Source: Gammaproteobacteria bacterium
GTDB lineage: Bacteria > Pseudomonadota > Gammaproteobacteria > SZUA-140
Assembly: GCA_026994735.1 (NCBI GenBank)
Contig: JALWQD010000074.1
Coordinates: 1-28,520 of the forward strand
Length of the DNA stretch: 28,520 nt
Reading direction: 5' to 3'
In this document: positions 10,518 through 28,520 of the stretch, piece after piece
Layout: each line of letters opens with the position of its first letter
Position numbering within the stretch: position 1 is the first letter of the stretch
Program-made: the position numbers and the translations under genes
The notes under the pieces: model-generated
Seen by the model: the letters and a program-made list of their open reading frames with translations, nothing else
The model's database searches: none
Told to the model about the DNA's origin: nothing

Positions 10518-10997
10518 CTTTTCTATCTCCCGAATAGTGGGTCTTCAATATCAGTAACGAGTCTGGACAGATAATCTTTAGCGATTAGCCATTGCTAGCG
10601 CAAAAAATAATCAATCCGTTGTTATTATTCTGTAGAAACTAGATACGCAGCCTGACATCCGTGACTAGCGTTGATAACGCATCAAACTGAAGGCAATCAA
10701 TCAGCCCTCCTTCTGACAACTGACCAGGCCATAAAGGGCCTGCGTTTATCGTTCCGGGCTATCAGCCCGCCTTAATAATCAGGTTGCTCATGTTCTGCCG
10801 GCCACTACGCGCCAGATAACCATCATACAAGATGCGAGTCATTATGAAAATGCTCCAATTCATTGTATGCATTCAGCTTCAGAGAGCGATAAAAAAAACA
10901 GCTTTTGAAAAACACAAAAGCCATCCATTAACAACCATCCCTTGGAACTTTGATACTTGTCAGCCCGATATGTTCCCATAAAGATAGAAACACTTCC

Positions 10998-19208: not shown

Positions 19209-19694
19209 CTATTTACCGGGGAGAGTCCAGCTTATCGGAGAAACAGCTGATAAACGTTCGACAATACGTGCATTATAGCGATCATCCTTAGCCAAAATAT
19301 GAGAAAATCGACGCAAGCACAGACATCCGATAAGCAGTCCGGTAAAACCCAAAAAAATCACCAGGCCTTCACCTTCCGGATCGGCAAATAATGGTTGCAG
19401 GATGTCACCGAGCAAGGCGCCGGCAAAAAGACTCAGCAATGGAAACATGTAGGCCATCAAAGAACCGCGCACGAGCACTTCATCAGCAATGGCAACAAGG
19501 ACACGATCACCAACCACAGCAGCAATTTCGTTATCGACACGAATCCGCATTTTCCTGCCAGTAAAAAAGCGTGCGACAATACCTGTACCGCACCCCTTAC
19601 TGGCCGTACAACTACCACAAGCGGTTCGCCGCAGGGCCTCAACCCACGCATGATCACCTTCAACAGCGATGACCTCCGCTTCTTCGGTAATCAT
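19209..19694 (-). CDS. rseC: RseC/MucC family SoxR-reducing membrane protein
   Basis: MITEEAEVIAVEG, ACGSCTASKGCGTG Cys motif, YMFPLL, two TM helices. Confidence 0.92.
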   Translation of the reverse strand: MITEEAEVIAVEGDHAWVEALRRTACGSCTASKGCGTGIVARFFTGRKMRIRVDNEIAAVVGDRVLVAIADEVLVRGSLMAYMFPLLSLFAGALLGDILQPLFADPEGEGLVIFLGFTGLLIGCLCLRRFSHILAKDDRYNARIVERLSAVSPISWTLPGK

Positions 19695-19761
19695 AATGAG
19701 TGTCGTTTATCCTCGCGTCGTGACAACGATGCCCGACAGATGCAACATAGGCACCCAGGTA

Positions 19762-20445
19762 TCAATAACTGGCAAGACTGACATGGCGCAACATATCATT
19801 ACCCGAACTGCTTTGAGAATAGCGGCTGTAATTAACTAGGTAGTCATAGAAGTCAGCCGCTTCCTGAGGGTAATTGACATTATTTGTAGCTACATTCTGG
19901 CCCGCTGAGGCCAGCACAACCCGTGCCGAATGGGCACTCTGTGCGGAAGAAAATGCCGCACTTGCAAGCGGACCTTCCGCTCTTGTGGCCGAAGCCATCT
20001 GAGCATTGGCAACAATGGCAGTATTCGCTGCCAGAGATTGCACAGGCATTGAATCAGTCGCTGGTGAAAAGGAGCCCATATTGAAAATAGCCAGTGCCGA
20101 CAATGATGCGGCAAGAGCAAAACCAACAGCTGGCACCGTCCGCCGAGGCAGTGTTGCTACCTTTGCTTGCCGGATGGCTGTCTGCTGCGGGGATGCCTCA
20201 TCCATCTGCGGTAACAGATAACTCGGCTCGGAGGCAATCGCTTTCGCTACAGACGCCGCAACATCAAAGTTCATTGTCTCGGGCAGTGACCGTCGCATAG
20301 CGTCACCAATTATATGGTAATCCTGCCAGTGCTGCTGTAACTGGCCAGCTTTCGACAACTGGTCAAGAACTTGATCAAAGTCTGCCTTCTCGACCTCACC
20401 ATCGGCCAGCATCGAAACCTTTTCAGCATTTACTTCATTCATCAT
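19762..20445 (-). CDS. rseA: Anti-sigma-E factor RseA/MucA
   Basis: EKVSMLADGE, WQDYHIIGDAMR N-terminal domain, a single TM (VGFALAASLSALAIF), periplasmic tail. Follows rpoE. Confidence 0.9.
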   Translation of the reverse strand: MMNEVNAEKVSMLADGEVEKADFDQVLDQLSKAGQLQQHWQDYHIIGDAMRRSLPETMNFDVAASVAKAIASEPSYLLPQMDEASPQQTAIRQAKVATLPRRTVPAVGFALAASLSALAIFNMGSFSPATDSMPVQSLAANTAIVANAQMASATRAEGPLASAAFSSAQSAHSARVVLASAGQNVATNNVNYPQEAADFYDYLVNYSRYSQSSSGNDMLRHVSLASY

Positions 20446-20488
20446 CTTACACTCCGTTTAGCGGCTCCTGGATCAGAGCTAGCAATGC

Positions 20489-21067
20489 TCAAGACTCAAG
20501 CATGGGCCGCAGACGTTTCTGTATCGCTTCACGGGCGCGGAAGATTCGTGACCTTACCGTTCCCACAGGACAATCCATCCTTAGGCTGATCTCTTCGTAA
20601 CTCAAACCTTCAAGTTCACGCATCATAATTGCTTCCCGCAACTCCGCAGGCAAACGGTCAATGGCATCGACAACCGTTTTCTCAATCTCGTCCCTCTGGT
20701 AGAGACGTTCCGGCGTTGCTGTTTCCTTCAACTCACCGGCTGTTTCAATATGTTCAGCATCGTTAATCTCAATATCAACACCGGGTGGCCGACGCCCCTG
20801 AGCGATAAGATGATTCTTCGCCGCATTGACGCCAATCCGGTAGAGCCAGGTATAAAAGGCACTCTCACCGCGAAAAGACGGCAATGCCCGGTAGGCTTTG
20901 ATAAACGCTTCCTGCGTCACGTCAAAGACTTCCTCTGAATCATGCACATAGCGTGATATCAGTTTCGCCAGTCGATGTTGGTATTTCTGTACAAGGATGT
21001 CAAAAGCCTTCTTATCACCCTGTTGTACACGTTCGACTAACTGCTGGTCTGTACTGCTCTCGCCCAT
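20489..21067 (-). CDS. rpoE: ECF sigma factor sigma-E (RpoE/AlgU)
   Basis: DQQLVERVQQGDKKAFDILVQKYQH, FRGESAFYTWLYRIGVN, RELEGLSYEEI, CPVGTVRSRIFRARE. Confidence 0.97.
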   Translation of the reverse strand: MGESSTDQQLVERVQQGDKKAFDILVQKYQHRLAKLISRYVHDSEEVFDVTQEAFIKAYRALPSFRGESAFYTWLYRIGVNAAKNHLIAQGRRPPGVDIEINDAEHIETAGELKETATPERLYQRDEIEKTVVDAIDRLPAELREAIMMRELEGLSYEEISLRMDCPVGTVRSRIFRAREAIQKRLRPMLES

Positions 21068-21415: not shown

Positions 21416-22672
21416 ATGCTTCCTACGTTCGAGCGATTACTGCCCTTGCAATGGCTCCTTCTGAGCACCCTGCTCACTGCCTGTCAAGGCCTCGACCAGG
21501 CGATTAAAAAAGGCCAGCAAGCTAGCGAGATTCTAGATACGGAAACGGTACAATCATTGCTCAGCCTGGCCCAAAGTGATCAACCGAAGGAGTCGGCCCG
21601 CCTGGCCCTGAGCAAGAAGATTGATGCCTATAGCGATAACCCTGCGCTGCTCGTCGCAGACTTGCAACGGGTCAAGCGTGATTACCAACACATCATGGCT
21701 GTCCTTGAAGGCAAGGTACAGCAACGCTGGGGGAAAAAGGAAAGTCGCCTGCCTGACCGTAAAACCTATGTAAAATATACCCAGAACTATGCCAGCCGGG
21801 CCGTCGTCGACTTTGACCGCGGACAAATCACCATTGAAACCCTGGCCCTTCAAAACACCAACAAACACCTGAAAAACGCCATTATTACCACCCTGTTAAC
21901 ACCACAAGATCCTCGTGCAGTTGACCTCTTCTCTGCGCGTGAAGTCACTCTCGACAGTGGCCAACCGCCTTATCTCCTTAATCTGGTTGTCGACAAACAA
22001 GGGCAAGCCATAAGCACTCCCGCCCAGGCAGAGGCCTTTGCCAACAAGCTCATCAGCACACAACGACAGCAACGGACCATTACCTCACCACAGGGGAAGC
22101 AACTAGCTCGGTACGTCGAAATTAAAATGGTCAGCAATTTCAGTCACCAGCAGGCGCTCAAATACCGCCCGATGGTCGAGCGCTACGCACAAAAATATAG
22201 CATTAGTAAAAGCCTGATTTATGCCATCATTAAAACCGAAAGCAACTTTAACCCCTTTGCTGTCAGTCATGTTCCGGCCTATGGTTTGATGCAACTCGTA
22301 CCTAGCAGCGGCGGCCAGGATGCCTACCGTCATGCCCGTGGAAAGCAAGGTATCCCGTCAAAACAGTTCCTCTTTAAGCCAGAAAATAACATTGAGCTGG
22401 GCACTGCCTATCTTGATATTCTCGATGACAATTACCTGGCTCGCATCACTAACCCCGTTGCCCGTGAATACTGCGTCATCTCTGCTTATAACACCGGTTC
22501 AGGCAATGTCTTCAAGGCCTTCGCCAAAACGCGCAAAGAGGCCCAGAATATCATCAATGGCATGACGCCGAGTCAGGTTTATGCGCAATTAAAGAAACAT
22601 TTGCCACACCAAGAGACCCGCCGCTACCTGGATACCGTTATCAAGCAACGCAAGCGCTTCATCTCATTGTGA
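21416..22672 (+). CDS. mltC: Membrane-bound lytic murein transglycosylase C (lipoprotein, DUF3393 + SLT domain)
   Basis: Lipobox LTAC; RWG...[22 protein letters not shown]-domain; catalytic [43 protein letters not shown]. Confidence 0.88.
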
Positions 22673-24270
22673 CAACCCCAGCCGTGCGCGCACCTCAATA
22701 TCATGGCCAGGTTCTGGTCATTGGCAGCGGTGCTGCCGGACTAACACTGGCGCTGCGCCTTGCCAACCACCGGCGCATCACCTTGATCGCAAAATCCTCT
22801 CTTGATGAAGGCGCAACGCTCTATGCCCAGGGCGGCATCAGTGTTGTCCTTGACGAAACCGATTCCCCACAATCACATATCGAAGACACCATCAATGCCG
22901 GTGCTGGCCTCTGCGACCCGGAAGTCGTCAGCCATACAGTCAACCATGCCCGTGAATGTATTCAATGGCTGATTGACCACGGTGTTCCCTTTACGCGTGA
23001 AACTACGGCTAAAGGTGCCATCGGCTATCACCTCACCCGTGAAGGCGGACACAGTCATCGACGCATCCTCCATGCAGCCGATGCCACAGGTATGGCGATT
23101 GAAAAAACCCTTGAACAAGAAGCGCGCGAACATCCAAATATCGAGATCTTCGAACACCACCTGGTCATTGACCTTATCTGCCAGCAAAAACGCTGTCTCG
23201 GGGCTTATATTCTCGACATCAGGAAACAGCAGGTACGCACATTCAGTGCTGACCATACCGTCCTTGCTGCCGGTGGTGCCGGCAAGGTCTACCTGTATAC
23301 CAGCAACCCGGATGTTGCCAGCGGTGACGGTATTGCCATGGCCTGGCGAGCGGGCTGCCGGGTTGCCAACCTCGAATTCATTCAATTTCATCCAACCTGC
23401 CTCTACCACCCACAGGCGAAATCCTTCCTCATCACCGAAGCCATTCGTGGCGAAGGGGGGCGCTTACTGTTACCCGATGGCAATCGTTTCATGCACCGTT
23501 TTGACCCACGTGCGGAACTGGCACCCCGTGACATCGTCGCGCGGGCAATCGACCATGAAATGAAGCGGCTAGGTGCCGACTGTGTCTACCTCGACATCAG
23601 TCACCGGCCGGCAGCATTCATCAGCGAACACTTTCCAACAATCTATCGCCGCTGCCTCGAATTTGGTATCGATATTACCCGGGAAGCTGTGCCTGTCGTG
23701 CCTGCTGCACACTACCTCTGTGGTGGCGTCATGACCGACCTGCAGGGACGCACAGACGTCAACAGGCTCTACGCCATTGGCGAAATGGCCTATACAGGAC
23801 TGCATGGAGCCAATCGCATGGCCAGCAACTCCTTGCTCGAATGTGTTGTTTTTGCTGCCGGTGCCTGCCAGGACATCCTCGACAAGAGCACAGACTCAAT
23901 GGCAACGCTCACCCTGCCGCAATGGGATGAAAGCCAGGTTACCGATTCTAATGAAGAGGTCTTTGTCTCGCATAACTGGGATGAACTACGACGTTTCATG
24001 TGGGATTATGTCGGCATTGTCCGCAGCAACAAACGCCTCCAGCGGGCACAACGACGTTGCCAGATGTTACACCGGGAAATTGATGAATATTACGGGGACT
24101 TTCGCATCACCAGTGACTTGATCGAACTACGCAACCTCGTTCTGGTTGCTGAATTGATTATCCAGTCAGCCCTGCAACGACGTGAAAGCCGGGGACTCCA
24201 TTTCAGTCTCGACTATCCTGAAAGTGATGACAGCAAGCCTCCCCAAGCAACGGTCCTGACACCGCCCTGA
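22669..24270 (+). CDS. nadB: L-aspartate oxidase
   Basis: [69 protein letters not shown] start overlaps the mltC stop. Confidence 0.96.
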
Positions 24271-24329
24271 GCAAACCCAGCCCTCTCTCGCAGCAAGAAA
24301 CAGAGCCACATGACAACGACCACTTGCTT

Positions 24330-25661
24330 TTACGGTTGAGCTATCCTGGCTACACCACCAAAGCTACCAACCCAGAGCGCCCCATCGTCGGCAATATCCA
24401 TCGAAAAGACATTATCGGCAAACAGGCCATCGGCACGTGTCAAGATCGTGAAACTCTTTTTATCATCATCAAAGCGTACCAAGCCATTACTTGTACCGGC
24501 CCAAAGACGATCGTCATCATCAAGATAGAGCATAAAGATATGATTCGCAGGCAAGCCATCGGCTGTCGTCAGGTTCTTCCAGTTCTGGCCATCGAACCGG
24601 GCCAGGCCGCCGCCCCAGGTACCACACCAAACGATCCCTTGGCGGTCAACAACCATCGAAATAATGTAATTCGGGTTGTAGGCAACCTTGACATTCTCCA
24701 TACCCTGCGCCGATTTCTGTTGCGCATGATGGCGGGATGATTTAGCCGGATCATTGGTAAATTGGATGGCATCCTTTACCAGCTCATAGGGAGCACCAAG
24801 ACCATCACTGTGTTTCCAATGCTTCCATTGGCCATTACGATAGCGCGCCAGGCCTTCCTCGGTAGCAAACCACATATCACCATTCAAACCTTCTTCAATA
24901 CCATAGACCCAGGGGTTTGGCAGGCCGCCGGCCGTATTCTCAACGGTAAACGTCGTCCATTGATCGGGATCATCGAGCTTACCCGCAGTGACCCGGTTAG
25001 CACCGGACCAGGTAGCAATCCAGACATCACCATTGCGAGTCTTGACAACCTCATAGACAAATTGATCAGCCAGTCCCTGGGGAATATTGTAATTTTGCCA
25101 TTTGTCTGCCGCCGGGTCGTACAATGACAGTCCACCACCATAGGTGCCTACAGCCAAGCGTTGCCCCAGTTTGCTGATATGAAAAATACCGTTCGAGAGC
25201 AGGCCAGGAATCTTGTTATTGTAGAGCTTGTGGCTATCATCGCGACTATCGTAGCGGATCACTCCACCTGACGTGCCAATCCAGGTAATGGGGCCATCGC
25301 TGACAACACCCTTGACGTTACGATTGCCAACACGAAAATGAGCAAAACGATTATCGCCCTTGGCTACCGCTGGCTTGGCCTCAGGCGTTTCCGTGGCCGG
25401 CGTCGCCATCGCAGGCAAAACAGACTGGGGCGCACTGCCACCACTGCGCGCGGCACGAATCACTGGCTGGGTCATCGGTGGATGATTGCTTGGCAATATG
25501 GTGCTTTCAGTCACCACACCCGCGTCTTTTTGCGCAGCACTTGTCAGCCTATTACCAGCGCCTGCGCTGTCACCCTGATGGGCACCAAATTGATAGCTGG
25601 CAATCAATAAGCCGCCAATAATAAATACCAGCAGAGCCAGCGTAGTATGATTCATTTTCAC
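24330..25661 (-). CDS. Stand-alone 7-bladed beta-propeller protein (two-component-regulator-propeller-like repeats) with an N-terminal membrane anchor or signal and an Ala/Pro-rich linker
   Basis: Seven repeats of (GL-x-x-x-x)-V-Y-x-I/V-x-x-D-x-x-G-x-x-W-x-G/A-T-x-G-G-L/V-x-R-F/Y-D. Hydrophobic N-terminus LALLVFIIGGLLIA. No Y_Y_Y, kinase or output domain follows blade 7. Confidence 0.8.
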   Translation of the reverse strand: MKMNHTTLALLVFIIGGLLIASYQFGAHQGDSAGAGNRLTSAAQKDAGVVTESTILPSNHPPMTQPVIRAARSGGSAPQSVLPAMATPATETPEAKPAVAKGDNRFAHFRVGNRNVKGVVSDGPITWIGTSGGVIRYDSRDDSHKLYNNKIPGLLSNGIFHISKLGQRLAVGTYGGGLSLYDPAADKWQNYNIPQGLADQFVYEVVKTRNGDVWIATWSGANRVTAGKLDDPDQWTTFTVENTAGGLPNPWVYGIEEGLNGDMWFATEEGLARYRNGQWKHWKHSDGLGAPYELVKDAIQFTNDPAKSSRHHAQQKSAQGMENVKVAYNPNYIISMVVDRQGIVWCGTWGGGLARFDGQNWKNLTTADGLPANHIFMLYLDDDDRLWAGTSNGLVRFDDDKKSFTILTRADGLFADNVFSMDIADDGALWVGSFGGVARIAQP

Positions 25662-25688
25662 GATTTGATCTTTCCTGAAGTCAACAAT

Positions 25689-26786
25689 CTATTCTGTTAC
25701 GGGTGGACCGCTAACCGACGGGCTATCGACACCAATACGAGCCACATTGCCTCGACTGCCGGCCCAGACATCACCATTCGCTGTTACCTGCACGGCATAG
25801 ACGGGGCCTGCTGGCAAGCCAGAATCCTGATTCACCGTCAGCCAATGATGCCCATCATAACGAGACAAGCCCTGATCGGTAGCAAACCAGAGACGGCCGT
25901 CGCTGTCTTCACTGATAGCAAAAACAATATCGCCGGCAAGCCCATCACTGACGGTCAGGTTGTGCCACTGTTGGCCGTCAAAATGGCTGACACCACCTCC
26001 CCAGGTGCCAACCCAGACAGAGTTGTCACGAGCAACATGGATGGCAAAAGCATAGCCCGGATTATAGGTTGGCTCGCCCTCGCTGAGAACACTGATGTTA
26101 TGACGGTCACGTGTCCCCAGGCCGGTATTTTTGCTCGCCGCCAGATGACGGTTATTGGGTGCCCCGAGACCATCATCATGCGTCCATTCTTGCCATTTTT
26201 TGCCGTCAAACATTGACACGCCACCTTCCGTGGCGAACCAGACACGATCCTGGTCATCAACGGCAATCCCATAGACCCATTCGTTAACCAGTTCGCCGTA
26301 AAACGTCTGCCATCTGTCCGCTCCAGGATCATAGCGATTCGCGCCCGCCCAGGTGCCCATCCAGATAGCTCCATTGGCCTGTTCAGCAAACGCATAGACC
26401 CAATAATCGGCCAATCCGTGCAAGGGGAAAAACGTCCGCCATGTTCCCTCCTTAAAACGTGAAACGCCACCACCGTTAGTGCCAAACCATTTATTCCCCT
26501 GGCTATCGGCCATGACAGCAAAGACGTATTCATTGGCCAGACCAGAAGCGCGAGTAAATGTCCGCCGCAGATCGCGGCTGGCCAGGTCGACCTCGTGGAC
26601 ACCCAGTGATGTCCCGACCCAAAGGCTGTTGCGCTGAGTATCAACGGCAAGGCTACGAACATAAACATCCTTACCAACCTCAAAGGCCTCAAGAACATGG
26701 GGCGTTGCCGCATCTGCAGCCCATAGAGGGCTTATCGGAATAATAACCGACAGCCAGAAAAGAAAGCCTGGCATACGAAGAATCAT
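25689..26786 (-). CDS. Secreted stand-alone 7-bladed beta-propeller protein, paralog of 24330..25661
   Basis: Signal peptide ending PLWA-AD; seven blades of the same repeat; no output domain. ATGA overlap with the upstream cytochrome c gene. Confidence 0.8.
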   Translation of the reverse strand: MILRMPGFLFWLSVIIPISPLWAADAATPHVLEAFEVGKDVYVRSLAVDTQRNSLWVGTSLGVHEVDLASRDLRRTFTRASGLANEYVFAVMADSQGNKWFGTNGGGVSRFKEGTWRTFFPLHGLADYWVYAFAEQANGAIWMGTWAGANRYDPGADRWQTFYGELVNEWVYGIAVDDQDRVWFATEGGVSMFDGKKWQEWTHDDGLGAPNNRHLAASKNTGLGTRDRHNISVLSEGEPTYNPGYAFAIHVARDNSVWVGTWGGGVSHFDGQQWHNLTVSDGLAGDIVFAISEDSDGRLWFATDQGLSRYDGHHWLTVNQDSGLPAGPVYAVQVTANGDVWAGSRGNVARIGVDSPSVSGPPVTE

Positions 26787-27085
26787 CTCAGGGTTCTCAA
26801 AAAAGCGACGAGGGCATATAACTCATCACGACTAAAACGGCCGGCAAAGGCAGGCATCATCCCCTGCCCCTGCTCAATCGAGGATACCACTTGCTCATCG
26901 GCACGCAATAACCGTTCGCCGCGTGAAAAATCAGGCATAGCGGGCATGAGTGGCTGGCCATTAGTACCATGACAGTTCTGGCAGTGACGCATATAGAGAC
27001 GACTGCCAACAGTCGTATCAGCCGCCATTAGCGGGCTACTCAACAATAACAGCACGAGGCTGATCAGTAGTAGAAATCGACTCAT
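26783..27085 (-). CDS. Periplasmic monoheme class I cytochrome c (c6/c553-like, probable His/Met ligation)
   Basis: Signal peptide ending PLMA-AD, G-x-x-L-Y before CQNCH, distal MMPAF, C-terminal LVAFLRTL helix. GGAG upstream of the start. Confidence 0.9.
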   Translation of the reverse strand: MSRFLLLISLVLLLLSSPLMAADTTVGSRLYMRHCQNCHGTNGQPLMPAMPDFSRGERLLRADEQVVSSIEQGQGMMPAFAGRFSRDELYALVAFLRTLR

Positions 27086-27182
27086 TATTTCTCCCTCCCC
27101 ACGGACTTCAAGGCCCGCATCGGATCATAATAACAAAGCTCACCAGCCAACTGGCAAAAAGACTTGCTGGGTGCAGACACTG

Positions 27183-27752
27183 TCACGACGCCGGAAACAG
27201 ATCGGCAAGGATACTACCATCTCCGTCCCGGGCCAATTGCCGCAAGGCCTCGACGACCGCAGCAGCATCCCATACCTGTTCACCCACCACTCGCCGCAGC
27301 AAGACACCCTGGGCGGAAATAATAAAAGTATCCGGGTAAATACGGATACCAAGAAGACGATTGGCAATATCCTGTTGACTGTCAATAAATGACGGCAGAT
27401 CGAGATCACGCTGACGTAGGTATTCACGCGCCAAAACTGGGTCCTTGTCTACTGATAGCAGAATGACTTCCATGCCCTCATCGGCCAATAGCCCTTGCAA
27501 ACGTTGTAAACTGGGCAATTCACGACGACAGGCTGAACACCAGGTAGCCCAGACATTAACAATCAATAGCTGGCCACGATAACTGTCCAGACGACGATCG
27601 GACTGACTGAGCCCGGTCAGGGTAAGGTTGGGGAACTGACTGCCTTCACGCAACTTATCTGGCGGCGCGGTCTGATCACACGCCGACAACAACAAAAGCA
27701 GGCACAACAAACTGCAGCGGAAGGAGTTAAAAAAGTAATCCGTCATTAACAT
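27183..27752 (-). CDS. TlpA/ResA-family thiol-disulfide oxidoreductase lipoprotein
   Basis: Lipobox LSAC, RGQLLIVNVWATWCSACRRELPSL thioredoxin motif, SVD, cis-Pro loop YPDTFII. The start may be the ATG at 27746. Confidence 0.88.
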   Translation of the reverse strand: MLMTDYFFNSFRCSLLCLLLLLSACDQTAPPDKLREGSQFPNLTLTGLSQSDRRLDSYRGQLLIVNVWATWCSACRRELPSLQRLQGLLADEGMEVILLSVDKDPVLAREYLRQRDLDLPSFIDSQQDIANRLLGIRIYPDTFIISAQGVLLRRVVGEQVWDAAAVVEALRQLARDGDGSILADLFPAS

Positions 27753-27912
27753 GACGGCAACTGATGCGCGGCCATTATCATTGCCAGGTCAGTTTCAGAT
27801 ACATGGTTACAGGCTTCTGCCGATGACAGCTAATCCCTGACACAAATGCGCACATCAACAAGCAGCATTACGAACAGAGCACGCCTGCTCCTGAGTAACC
27901 GTCAACAAGCGG

Positions 27913-28520
27913 CTAGGGAACAATCTCATTAATAACTATCTCCGGCACCTGACTGCCAACAGCAACAACAGCACTCAGTCCCTGCAAGTCACCACTACTC
28001 GGCATGGCATTGCCAGTGTGAGAAATACGTGCGCCGACGACAACCTGGGAAAAACGAGCCAAACTCATCTGTGGTGTCATCGCCATAGACTCATCGAGGA
28101 CGAAATCTAGCGGCAAATCACGTACCTGAACACGCTTTACGGCGAGTGGCATCGGCGGTCCGGAGGCCGCGCGGGCAAAGATAAAAACCGTATCATCGGC
28201 AGCAGCACGGCCAGCCAATGATGGCGATAAACTGACACGCCCAGTCAGTCGTGCCGGGCCATTACCAGCGGCCGCAGGCGCTGATGCCATGTTCTTCTGC
28301 ATATCGGGCATGCTTTGTGCTGAAGGCGGTGGACGCCCTTCGAGCAGGGCCTGTGCCTCAGCAATATTAGCGGCCATCGTGCGTGCCGTTTCTGAACCGG
28401 CAGGTAACTGTGTCGCCAACTGACGCCATAACTGCACCGCTTCAGCATAACTCCCTTGTTCAAATGCTGCGGTACCGGCTAGCCAGAGAGCCTTCTGGTT
28501 GTTAGGGTCAATCATCAACG
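27913..28520 (-). CDS. ccmI: Cytochrome c-type biogenesis protein CcmI/CycH, C-terminal part (5' end outside the window)
   Basis: TPR end DPNNQKALWLAGTAAFEQGSY..A..LW, then the CcmI C-terminal domain VSLSPSL...DTVFIFARAASGPPMPLAVKR...LPLDFVLDESMAM...VVVGARISHTGNAMPSSGDLQG. Frame is open to the window edge. Confidence 0.85.
   Translation of the reverse strand, partial: LMIDPNNQKALWLAGTAAFEQGSYAEAVQLWRQLATQLPAGSETARTMAANIAEAQALLEGRPPPSAQSMPDMQKNMASAPAAAGNGPARLTGRVSLSPSLAGRAAADDTVFIFARAASGPPMPLAVKRVQVRDLPLDFVLDESMAMTPQMSLARFSQVVVGARISHTGNAMPSSGDLQGLSAVVAVGSQVPEIVINEIVP

Follow-up and report, generated by a model that had tools for sequence, protein, structure and literature searches.

A cytochrome c and two stand-alone Reg_prop propellers behind a ccm operon: a possible redox-linked sensing or adaptor module in Gammaproteobacteria

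At the end of contig JALWQD010000074.1 of a gammaproteobacterial assembly (GCA_026994735.1; 28,520 bp, the whole of which was analysed and is called the window here) the last gene of a cytochrome c maturation (ccm) operon is followed by genes for a TlpA-like protein, a small cytochrome c and two β-propellers, referred to as PropA and PropB. What might two propellers without any output domain do beside a cytochrome? An earlier note on this DNA, made from the sequence alone, had suggested a new periplasmic enzyme or binding complex with its own electron carrier and thiol reductase. We find that the constant unit is cytochrome c–PropA–PropB, a trio that the literature lists with no function attached and of which the window holds a further member. 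The trio could be a periplasmic redox-linked sensing or adaptor complex, a reading that we consider possible and put forward tentatively, because the sequences of both propellers, and for PropA the predicted fold as well, place them in a sensor-domain family, because they are operonic with signalling proteins in most lineages, and because the type of output is exchanged while the propeller pair stays constant.

A constant cytochrome c–PropA–PropB unit and its neighbours

Calling of open reading frames (ORFs) gave five co-oriented ORFs on the minus strand at the window end, and together with Pfam this confirmed the gene series read in the earlier note. From the window end inwards the features are:

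27913–28518, open at the window end (feature 27913..28520), minus strand: C-terminal part of ccmI/cycH (Pfam Ig_CycH E=6.6e-38, TPR_CcmH_CycH)
27183–27752, minus strand: TlpA/ResA-like protein (Pfam AhpC-TSA 6.3e-19, Redoxin 1.5e-16)
26783–27085, minus strand: monohaem class I cytochrome c (Pfam Cytochrome_CBB3 1.5e-12, Cytochrom_C 1.9e-8)
26783..26786, minus strand: ATGA in which the stop of the cytochrome c and the start of PropA overlap (sequence)
25689–26786, minus strand: PropA (Pfam Reg_prop E=7.9e-28)
25662..25688, minus strand: spacer of 27 bp between PropA and PropB (sequence)
24330–25661, minus strand: PropB (Pfam Reg_prop E=4e-18)
24271..24329, no strand: short spacer at the operon end, before the convergent nadB; in contrast to most relatives, PropB is not followed by a GGDEF-EAL gene here
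22669–24270, plus strand: nadB, convergent, which terminates the propeller operon

The ATGA overlap suggests translational coupling of the cytochrome c and PropA, and an overlap of 1 or 4 bp recurs at this junction in most orthologous loci. An AGGAAAG Shine-Dalgarno-like motif lies in the 27-bp spacer, approximately 9 nt before the GTG start of PropB. The overlap and the spacer had both been described before and were found as described; the 27-bp length assumes that PropB starts at the GTG at 25661, and the start given in the database is two codons shorter.

PropA orthologs were present in 24 of 24 sampled genomes of the window's family, always with PropB adjoining, and in 0 of 15 genomes from other families in this first sample, one of which gave weak matches to sensor kinases. 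Of 400 class genomes sampled evenly, 37 had a PropA ortholog (54–66% identity, E ≤ 1e-120). These represent about 20 gammaproteobacterial families, across which PropA shows 54–67% sequence identity. PropA and PropB were adjacent in every locus examined. As the same gene order is seen in 12 of 12 sampled family genomes and, in its core, in 20 further families, the synteny of the cluster is far from chance. The median identity to the window proteins is ≈60% for both propellers, within the family as well as outside it, and 50/45% (within/outside) for CcmI, 48/39% for the TlpA-like protein and 47/43% for the cytochrome. Public metagenomes from groundwater, sediments and vents hold thousands of propeller homologs at 90% clustering, named merely "regulator" or "ligand-binding sensor domain-containing protein" in the databases. 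The labels of the metagenome-assembled genomes that carry them include Gammaproteobacteria, Chromatiales, Thiohalomonadaceae, Gallionellaceae and Sideroxyarcus.

For the gene neighbourhoods, 42 loci were fetched, their ORFs clustered and the recurrent clusters annotated, and precomputed Pfam calls were used for two further contexts. Counts of families are based on one locus per family in 21 families and are floors, since some loci are cut by contig ends. Two orders were found. The ccm-linked order, to which the window's family belongs, runs ccmABCDEFGHI, TlpA-like gene, cytochrome c, PropA, PropB and, directly downstream of PropB, the gene for an 820-aa GGDEF-EAL protein. This protein consists of a transmembrane segment, a periplasmic domain, a second transmembrane segment and then HAMP, PAS, GGDEF and EAL domains; the periplasmic domain (≈165 aa) has a single CXXCH and a weak Tll0287-like match. 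Beyond it and divergent from it lie genes for an NHL propeller, a pentahaem cytochrome and then two trihaem class I cytochromes. The order linked to cytochrome maturation system II and a kinase begins with NHL, NHL, undecahaem cytochrome (11 CXXCH, UetJ-like), ResB, CcsA, a COX1-like membrane protein, a TPR protein and a thioredoxin, and continues with a PAS histidine kinase, a sigma-54 regulator, a secreted Sel1 protein, cytochrome c (not always present), PropA and PropB. The output type thus changes, being either a cyclic di-GMP (c-di-GMP) enzyme or a kinase with a sigma-54 regulator, while the propeller pair is constant. The counts per family are:

Cytochrome c directly upstream of PropA: 15/21 families
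Cytochrome c anywhere in the locus: 18/21 families
TlpA-like gene no more than two genes upstream: 8/21 families
ccmI no more than three genes upstream: 12/21 families
Sel1 gene no more than two genes upstream: 7/21 families
Signalling gene adjacent: 12/21 families
Cytochrome-biogenesis genes in the locus: 16/21 families
NHL, pentahaem and trihaem genes: 13, 13 and 12 of 21 families

These results agree with the earlier view of a conserved, periplasmic, cytochrome-associated module that is appended to ccm, and the module travels with multihaem cytochromes. The cytochrome gene, for which co-occurrence had been expected, does not stand directly upstream of PropA in 6 of the 21 families. A kinase or cyclase as neighbour, which had been regarded beforehand as evidence against the proposed module, was found in 12 of the 21 by this analysis.

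A tree of PropA rooted with PropB, with context labels assigned from synteny, placed the rows of the kinase/Sel1 type at the base; those of the ccm type fell in one clade (97/94), which also holds two kinase-type rows. The resolution of this tree is low. PropA and PropB themselves are paralogs with 36% identity, split by long branches with 100/100 support, which places their duplication before the pair spread.

The position of the cytochrome within the trio is not fixed, as its gene follows PropB, and does not precede PropA, in one family (L130:12316-12771) and was not seen in the locus in a few others (e.g., L112 and L122).

Other genes recur beside the pair as well. In three families (L116, L119 and L127) a gene for a Kelch-repeat propeller of ≈450 aa directly follows PropB; in L116 it stands between PropB and the GGDEF-EAL gene, and no downstream GGDEF-EAL gene was seen in L119 and L127. 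A gene for an FGE-sulfatase (formylglycine-generating-enzyme-like) protein precedes ccmA in several ccm-type loci (L111, L113, L114, L123 and L128), and two FGE-sulfatase copies follow PropB in a locus from Gallionellaceae (L033). The COX1-like protein between CcsA and the NrfG-like TPR protein (L078:2278-3612, L080:6136-8031 and relatives) has nine helices and only a weak COX1 (PF00115) match. In Sideroxyarcus it forms one chain with the TPR protein, and it may handle haem within a dedicated variant of system II.

Predicted fold, conserved residues and the search for an active site

Reg_prop repeats are the only Pfam domains in PropA and PropB, and both chains end directly past blade 7. With 93.4 bits for PropA and 63.6 bits for PropB, both lie inside the Reg_prop family (PF07494, gathering cut-off 20.4 bits), and they are the sole Reg_prop matches in the assembled genome. 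Y_Y_Y (PF07495) was absent from both at E ≤ 0.1, and Pfam and NCBIfam searches of both gave neither a kinase nor any other output domain. Their description in the earlier note as twin seven-bladed propellers without Y_Y_Y, kinase or other output domain is thus confirmed by Pfam and by the PropA model described below. The best 120 listed orthologs of each propeller are also stand-alone proteins without an output domain, nearly all of 330–460 aa, and no natural fusion of PropA with PropB or of the cytochrome with PropA was seen among the best 120 listed homologs of each protein. An apparent fusion ORF of 660 aa in one locus (L118) was rejected as a case of overlapping long ORFs in a high-GC genome. 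An exhaustive representative search with PropA was swamped by long multi-propeller sensors with summed repeat scores, and was uninformative for orthologs and fusions.

The AlphaFold2 model of PropA, based on 50 orthologs, had a predicted local distance difference test score (pLDDT) of 89.2 and a predicted template modelling score (pTM) of 0.87. Its seven blades have four strands each, the N-terminal strand closes the propeller in a "velcro" arrangement, and an insertion between blades 4 and 5 is modelled with low confidence. The top Foldseek matches of this model in the PDB were 4a2l, 4a2m and 3v9f (≈21% identity, E ≈1e-16, template modelling score (TM-score) ≈0.65 over one propeller), i.e., the periplasmic sensors BT4663, BT3049 and BT4673 of hybrid two-component systems (HTCS). 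These were followed by Vgb lyase and generic WD40 proteins, and propeller oxidoreductases were not found among the top 50 matches. The fold search was run with PropA alone. The PropB propeller was seen in a model of an artificial PropA-X-PropB concatenation with only five paired rows, namely the window and four relatives in which the in-frame genes were read through a single stop (we do not claim these as real read-through proteins). In this model the PropB propeller has a pLDDT of ≈85–93, its N-terminal anchor is a helix and the linker is disordered.

Both propellers have conserved features that might belong to an active site. The 50 PropA orthologs share invariant triplets at the blade entries, including N85-E86-Y87, D127-Y128-W129 and N168-E169-W170, and within the blade 4/5 insertion S218, N220-T221-G222, G224-T225-R226, R228-H229, N242-P243 and Y245 are invariant. 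The homologous insertion in PropB reads DGLGAP..DP..S.HH..YNPNY, of which DP, S and HH are conserved in 41 orthologs, as is an FxHFRVGNRNVK entry strand. Enzymes that combine a propeller with a c-type cytochrome exist, for example NirN, cd1 nitrite reductase and the quinohaemoprotein dehydrogenases, and hydrazine synthase has propeller subunits as well as a cytochrome subunit. On the enzyme reading, the pair would act in the periplasm as an oxidoreductase or a substrate-binding enzyme of a new kind, exchanging electrons with the co-translated cytochrome c, and the ring of conserved Asn/Asp-Glu-Tyr/Trp residues together with the His/Arg-bearing insertion loop would make up the active site. The translational coupling, the very high sequence conservation and the invariant, probably flexible insertion (R226, R228 and H229 in PropA, HH in PropB) count in favour of such an enzyme, and so does a genus that keeps the trio though no signalling partner was found there (see below).

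The searches for known enzyme families point the other way. NosZ, thiocyanate dehydrogenase (TcDH), MtoX/SBP56, the heavy chain of methylamine dehydrogenase (MADH) and the cd1-type families gave no match at E ≤ 0.1 in Pfam and NCBIfam, and neither sequence nor fold ties the propellers to any propeller oxidoreductase family. PropA has no cysteines at all, and the single cysteine of PropB is not conserved among the 41 orthologs. The histidines H123 and H229 are invariant in PropA, and H203 is conserved in at least 90% of the 50 orthologs. A set of several His or Cys ligands for a metal or cofactor in the propeller centre could not be recognised, as judged from sequence conservation and not from 3D positions. 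Because cysteines are absent or unconserved and only two to three PropA histidines are invariant, a NosZ-, TcDH- or MtoX-like metal centre is unlikely and there is no plausible thiol substrate for the TlpA-like protein in the propellers. Genes for cofactor biosynthesis or metal chaperones are not part of the conserved neighbourhood, and the cytochrome is absent or displaced in 6/21 families. With propellers of the Reg_prop sensor type and a fold nearest to HTCS sensors, the new enzyme of the earlier note appears quite improbable.

Export signals were judged by eye from the sequence. The note had assigned such signals to the TlpA-like protein, the cytochrome and both propellers, which holds for the lipobox of the first and for the cleavable-looking signals of the cytochrome and PropA (..LMA/AD and ..LWA/AD, respectively). 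PropB has no classical signal peptide; its N-terminus is a hydrophobic anchor that looks uncleaved, followed by a Pro/Ala-rich, poorly conserved linker of ≈90 residues. A lipobox, in most cases with Ser at +2, is present in at least 25 of the 50 PropA orthologs, and the window copy is of the signal-peptidase I type. A partly conserved LPxxHPP is found at residues 55–63 of the otherwise variable PropB linker, with P57 and P61 present in at least 80% and H60 in at least 50% of the 41 orthologs.

The small cytochrome has 100 residues, ≈77 of them in the mature protein, with CQNCH at residues 35–39 and a likely Met ligand in QGMMPAF. A single N-terminal CXXCH, a distal Met, a length of ≈80 residues and a signal peptide make it a class I c-type cytochrome, and the closest solved relatives are CcoP C-terminal domains, the anammox c552 and cytochrome c6.

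The TlpA-like protein, with WCSAC as its active site and an LLSAC lipobox whose +2 residue is Asp, is probably an inner-membrane lipoprotein. As an exported thioredoxin fold with a CxxC it falls within the TlpA/ResA/CcmG group, and its PDB relatives are ResA, TlpA and DsbE. The matches to the NCBIfam ResA subfamily (4.4e-24) and TlpA (3e-19) are both under the curated cut-offs. At equivalog level it is neither the TlpA of Bradyrhizobium (69.7 bits vs. a cut-off of 230) nor CcmG/DsbE (DsbE 47.3 bits vs. 123), and a separate ccmG is present inside the ccm operon. The protein is better explained as serving cytochrome c maturation, where it would reduce the CXXCH cysteines of apocytochromes, than as a partner of the propellers, because the propellers have no conserved cysteines, because the sole nearby CXXC-type target is the haem motif of the cytochrome, and because in other lineages the thioredoxin sits with CcsA/TPR and not with the propeller pair. 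The thiol reductase that the note had counted as the module's own is found close upstream in only 8/21 families and lies by CcsA/TPR elsewhere.

Could the trio itself be devoted to maturation? The propellers, the small cytochrome and the TlpA-like protein would then be accessory factors that help system I or system II to mature multihaem cytochromes. ccmI/cycH is the last gene of the system I maturation operon, and the pair comes after it in 12/21 families and downstream of ResB-CcsA-TPR-thioredoxin in others; genes for cytochrome biogenesis occur in 16/21 loci. However, a kinase, a regulator and Sel1 separate the maturation genes from the pair in system II loci, no ccm or ccs gene was seen in 5/21 family loci (e.g., the 10.8-kb contig L121), and of the 400 class genomes searched only 37 have the pair. 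System I ccm is generally common among members of the class, and we know of no mature cytochrome that acts as a dedicated maturation factor. We regard a maturation role as very unlikely.

The proposed role and what weighs on it

The sensing or adaptor complex that we propose would work as follows. PropA and PropB, each encoded by its own gene, would be the two halves of a periplasmic binding module of the Reg_prop type, a twin propeller without a kinase. PropA, presumably soluble here and a lipoprotein in many relatives, and PropB, which would be tethered to the inner membrane by its anchor and long flexible linker, would be made together with the small monohaem cytochrome c and probably dock it. 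The trio makes up the constant core of a gene island in chemolithoautotrophic or electroautotrophic Gammaproteobacteria, flanked in relatives by interchangeable outputs, either a HAMP-PAS-GGDEF-EAL haem-c sensor or a PAS kinase with a sigma-54 regulator and Sel1. It might inform these outputs about the periplasmic cytochrome pool's state, or about a linked ligand, and the outputs might then tune the expression or assembly of electron-uptake cytochromes.

The source genome lends some colour to this picture. It belongs to a hydrothermal-vent autotroph. The assembly is 84% complete and encodes RuBisCO (contig C296), and the sequencing runs that match the stretch are of DNA from hydrothermal-vent metagenomes. 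The remainder of ccm is found on other contigs: C281 carries ccmA-ccmC-ccmF, and C382, which overlaps the window end, carries ccmF(C-terminal part)-ccmG-ccmH-ccmI(N-terminal part). A block of NHL, pentahaem and trihaem genes is present on a separate 4-kb contig (C276) that is not contiguous with the window, with 79% identity to the family orthologs for the pentahaem and 61% for the NHL protein. Besides system I ccm there is a set of NHL, undecahaem, ResB and CcsA (system II) on C289 and C70 that resembles the undecahaem electron transfer (Uet) genes. Together the C276 block and the Uet-like set suggest a lifestyle with extracellular electron uptake.

Several observations weigh against a sensing or adaptor role. 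In three genomes of the genus (G000, G001 and G002, which are 84, 80 and 95% complete) a search for the haem-sensor domain of the GGDEF-EAL protein gave nothing, while the same domain was detected in two control genera from the family (G004 and G007), and neither Sel1 nor a kinase-type partner was detected in the source genome. The trio is kept there without these outputs being detected, and is therefore not strictly dependent on them. The kinase and the GGDEF-EAL protein each have a periplasmic domain of their own (≈165 residues); no relationship between these two domains could be detected, and CXXCH occurs in that of the GGDEF-EAL protein only. With such domains, neither output has an obvious need for a sensor from outside. 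For a ligand-sensing domain, an identity of ≈60% between families is unusually high. In the PropA-X-PropB model, with only five paired rows, the pTM was 0.51, with no confident mutual orientation of the propellers, and the arrangement of the HTCS twin propeller 4a2m was not reproduced (TM-score ≈0.33). The contact between the cytochrome and the propellers is also one that we infer.

Since the genus keeps the trio though no GGDEF-EAL or kinase partner was found, the trio might instead be no sensor but a redox device of the periplasm that is sufficient in itself, a reading that we consider unlikely. In one form it would be a cofactor-poor oxidoreductase, with the acidic and aromatic ring and the Arg/His loop binding, for example, Fe(II) or another cation. 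In another it would be a bridge across the periplasm from a PropA tethered to the outer membrane to a PropB tethered to the inner membrane, and would feed electrons from Uet-type uptake complexes to the respiratory chain.

A further explanation leaves out signalling and sees the propellers as a structural scaffold of a periplasmic electron-transfer chain. PropA, often a lipoprotein of the outer-membrane type, and the inner-membrane-anchored PropB would position the small cytochrome c, the pentahaem and the trihaems across the periplasm, by analogy with the role proposed for NHL propellers in Uet-type clusters. The opposite tethers are suggestive, with a lipobox in at least half of the 50 PropA orthologs and a transmembrane anchor plus linker in PropB, yet the window PropA has no lipid anchor. 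Co-occurrence with the pentahaem is close, as PropA was found in 25/26 class genomes that carry a pentahaem ortholog (these genomes are related, and the counts are not independent), but 12 of the 37 PropA-positive class genomes lack a pentahaem at E ≤ 1e-30. An identity that is high and flat across families is what would be expected of a protein with several fixed protein partners, and a scaffold could persist in a genus where no signalling partner was found. Reg_prop is otherwise known as the input domain of sensors, however, and signalling genes adjoin the pair in most families. A structuring role has also been suggested for the NHL protein of the same cluster (bioRxiv 10.1101/2022.05.06.490989). 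On balance the scaffold appears somewhat unlikely, and we keep to the sensing or adaptor complex as our working interpretation.

Electron uptake from minerals and cathodes by chemolithoautotrophs is poorly understood, and its regulation even less so. With ≈60% identity over about 20 families, the trio is among the most conserved non-cytochrome parts of Uet-associated islands. If it links the periplasmic redox state to control by c-di-GMP or sigma-54, it would give a handle on how iron oxidisers and biocathode organisms regulate biofilm and cytochromes; should it be a redox device by itself, extracellular electron uptake would gain a new component. What the window adds is that cytochrome c–PropA–PropB can persist in a genus in which no GGDEF-EAL partner was found.

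The remaining part of the window is core chromosome, with mltC, rpoE-rseA-rseC-degP, lepA-lepB-rnc-era-recO-pdxJ-acpS, sucAB-lpd and sucCD. No RNA sequencing run carrying the stretch was found among public runs, promoter and terminator scans of the window gave counts not above those expected from shuffled sequence, and Rfam and tRNA scans of the window gave no match. Between rpoE, rseA, rseC and degP (19209–21067, minus strand) the gap from rseA to rseC is only 67 bp, and rseB/mucB is missing from its usual place there. A stretch of 480 bp without an ORF of at least 90 aa (10518–10997) separates a TPR protein gene from acpS; it lies in the part of the window with the lowest GC content (0.46), and no Rfam family or tRNA was found in it.

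Comparison with known systems

The earlier note had not recognised the module as a named system, and the same cluster turned out to be listed in a preprint on the Tenderiales. In "Candidatus Tenderia electrophaga" a conserved "secondary c-type cytochrome cluster" follows directly after a ten-gene type I ccm pathway and adjoins the Uet electron-uptake genes (bioRxiv 10.1101/2022.05.06.490989). It comprises a thioredoxin (ALP54648), a cytochrome that has part of a CcoP domain (ALP54909), two periplasmic ligand-binding sensor domain proteins (ALP54649 and ALP54650) and a haem c-di-GMP phosphodiesterase (ALP54651), and it also holds an NHL protein, a pentahaem and two trihaems. The authors suggest that the sensor-domain proteins and the phosphodiesterase are regulatory and that the NHL protein has a structuring role, and report no experimental function (bioRxiv 10.1101/2022.05.06.490989).

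The window block matches this cluster by the described series of genes, which is not a sequence comparison with the ALP accessions. Both stand directly after type I ccm and contain a thioredoxin, a small cytochrome and two stand-alone sensor-domain proteins, and a Uet-like cluster is found in the source genome too, as are genes for an NHL protein, a pentahaem and trihaems (C276). They differ in that nadB, and not the gene for the haem GGDEF-EAL c-di-GMP phosphodiesterase, follows PropB here, and in that the multihaem cytochrome part is on another contig. The Tenderia propeller-cluster genes are not mentioned in the main text of the 2017 metatranscriptome paper, and no experimental work on these propeller proteins was found in the literature.

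Periplasmic seven-bladed propellers with a small cytochrome or cupredoxin as partner are also known from NosZ, thiocyanate dehydrogenase, MtoX/SBP56 and the MADH heavy chain. In contrast, PropA and PropB gave no sequence match to these families, none of them is among the top 50 structural matches of the PropA model, and a suitable constellation of His or Cys residues is not present.

The Uet clusters of Tenderiales and some Gallionella encode the NHL propellers UetH/I, the undecahaem UetJ, CcsAB and an NrfG-like TPR protein, and their non-catalytic propellers have been proposed as organisers of cytochrome complexes (PMC10734462; bioRxiv 10.1101/2022.05.06.490989). A pangenome paper on Gallionellaceae lists Uet together with a cluster for a diguanylate cyclase/phosphodiesterase with one CXXCH, without mention of the propellers described here (PMC10734462). 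Loci of the kinase type place the propeller pair just downstream of NHL-NHL-undecahaem-ResB-CcsA-TPR-thioredoxin, and the source genome has a set of this kind. The Uet propellers are of the NHL type and not Reg_prop, however, and PropA and PropB are outside the named uetA-J genes.

The closest structural matches of the PropA model are the HTCS sensors of Bacteroides (BT4663, BT3049 and BT4673; 4a2l, 4a2m, 3v9f, 3ott and 3va6), which belong to the same Reg_prop family and likewise use two propellers. In HTCS a single chain holds both propellers and continues with Y_Y_Y, a transmembrane segment, a kinase, a receiver and AraC, and the sensors bind glycans. PropA and PropB, in contrast, are encoded by two genes without Y_Y_Y or an output domain, have an additional conserved insertion between blades 4 and 5, and are found with a cytochrome c partner in a cytochrome-rich context.

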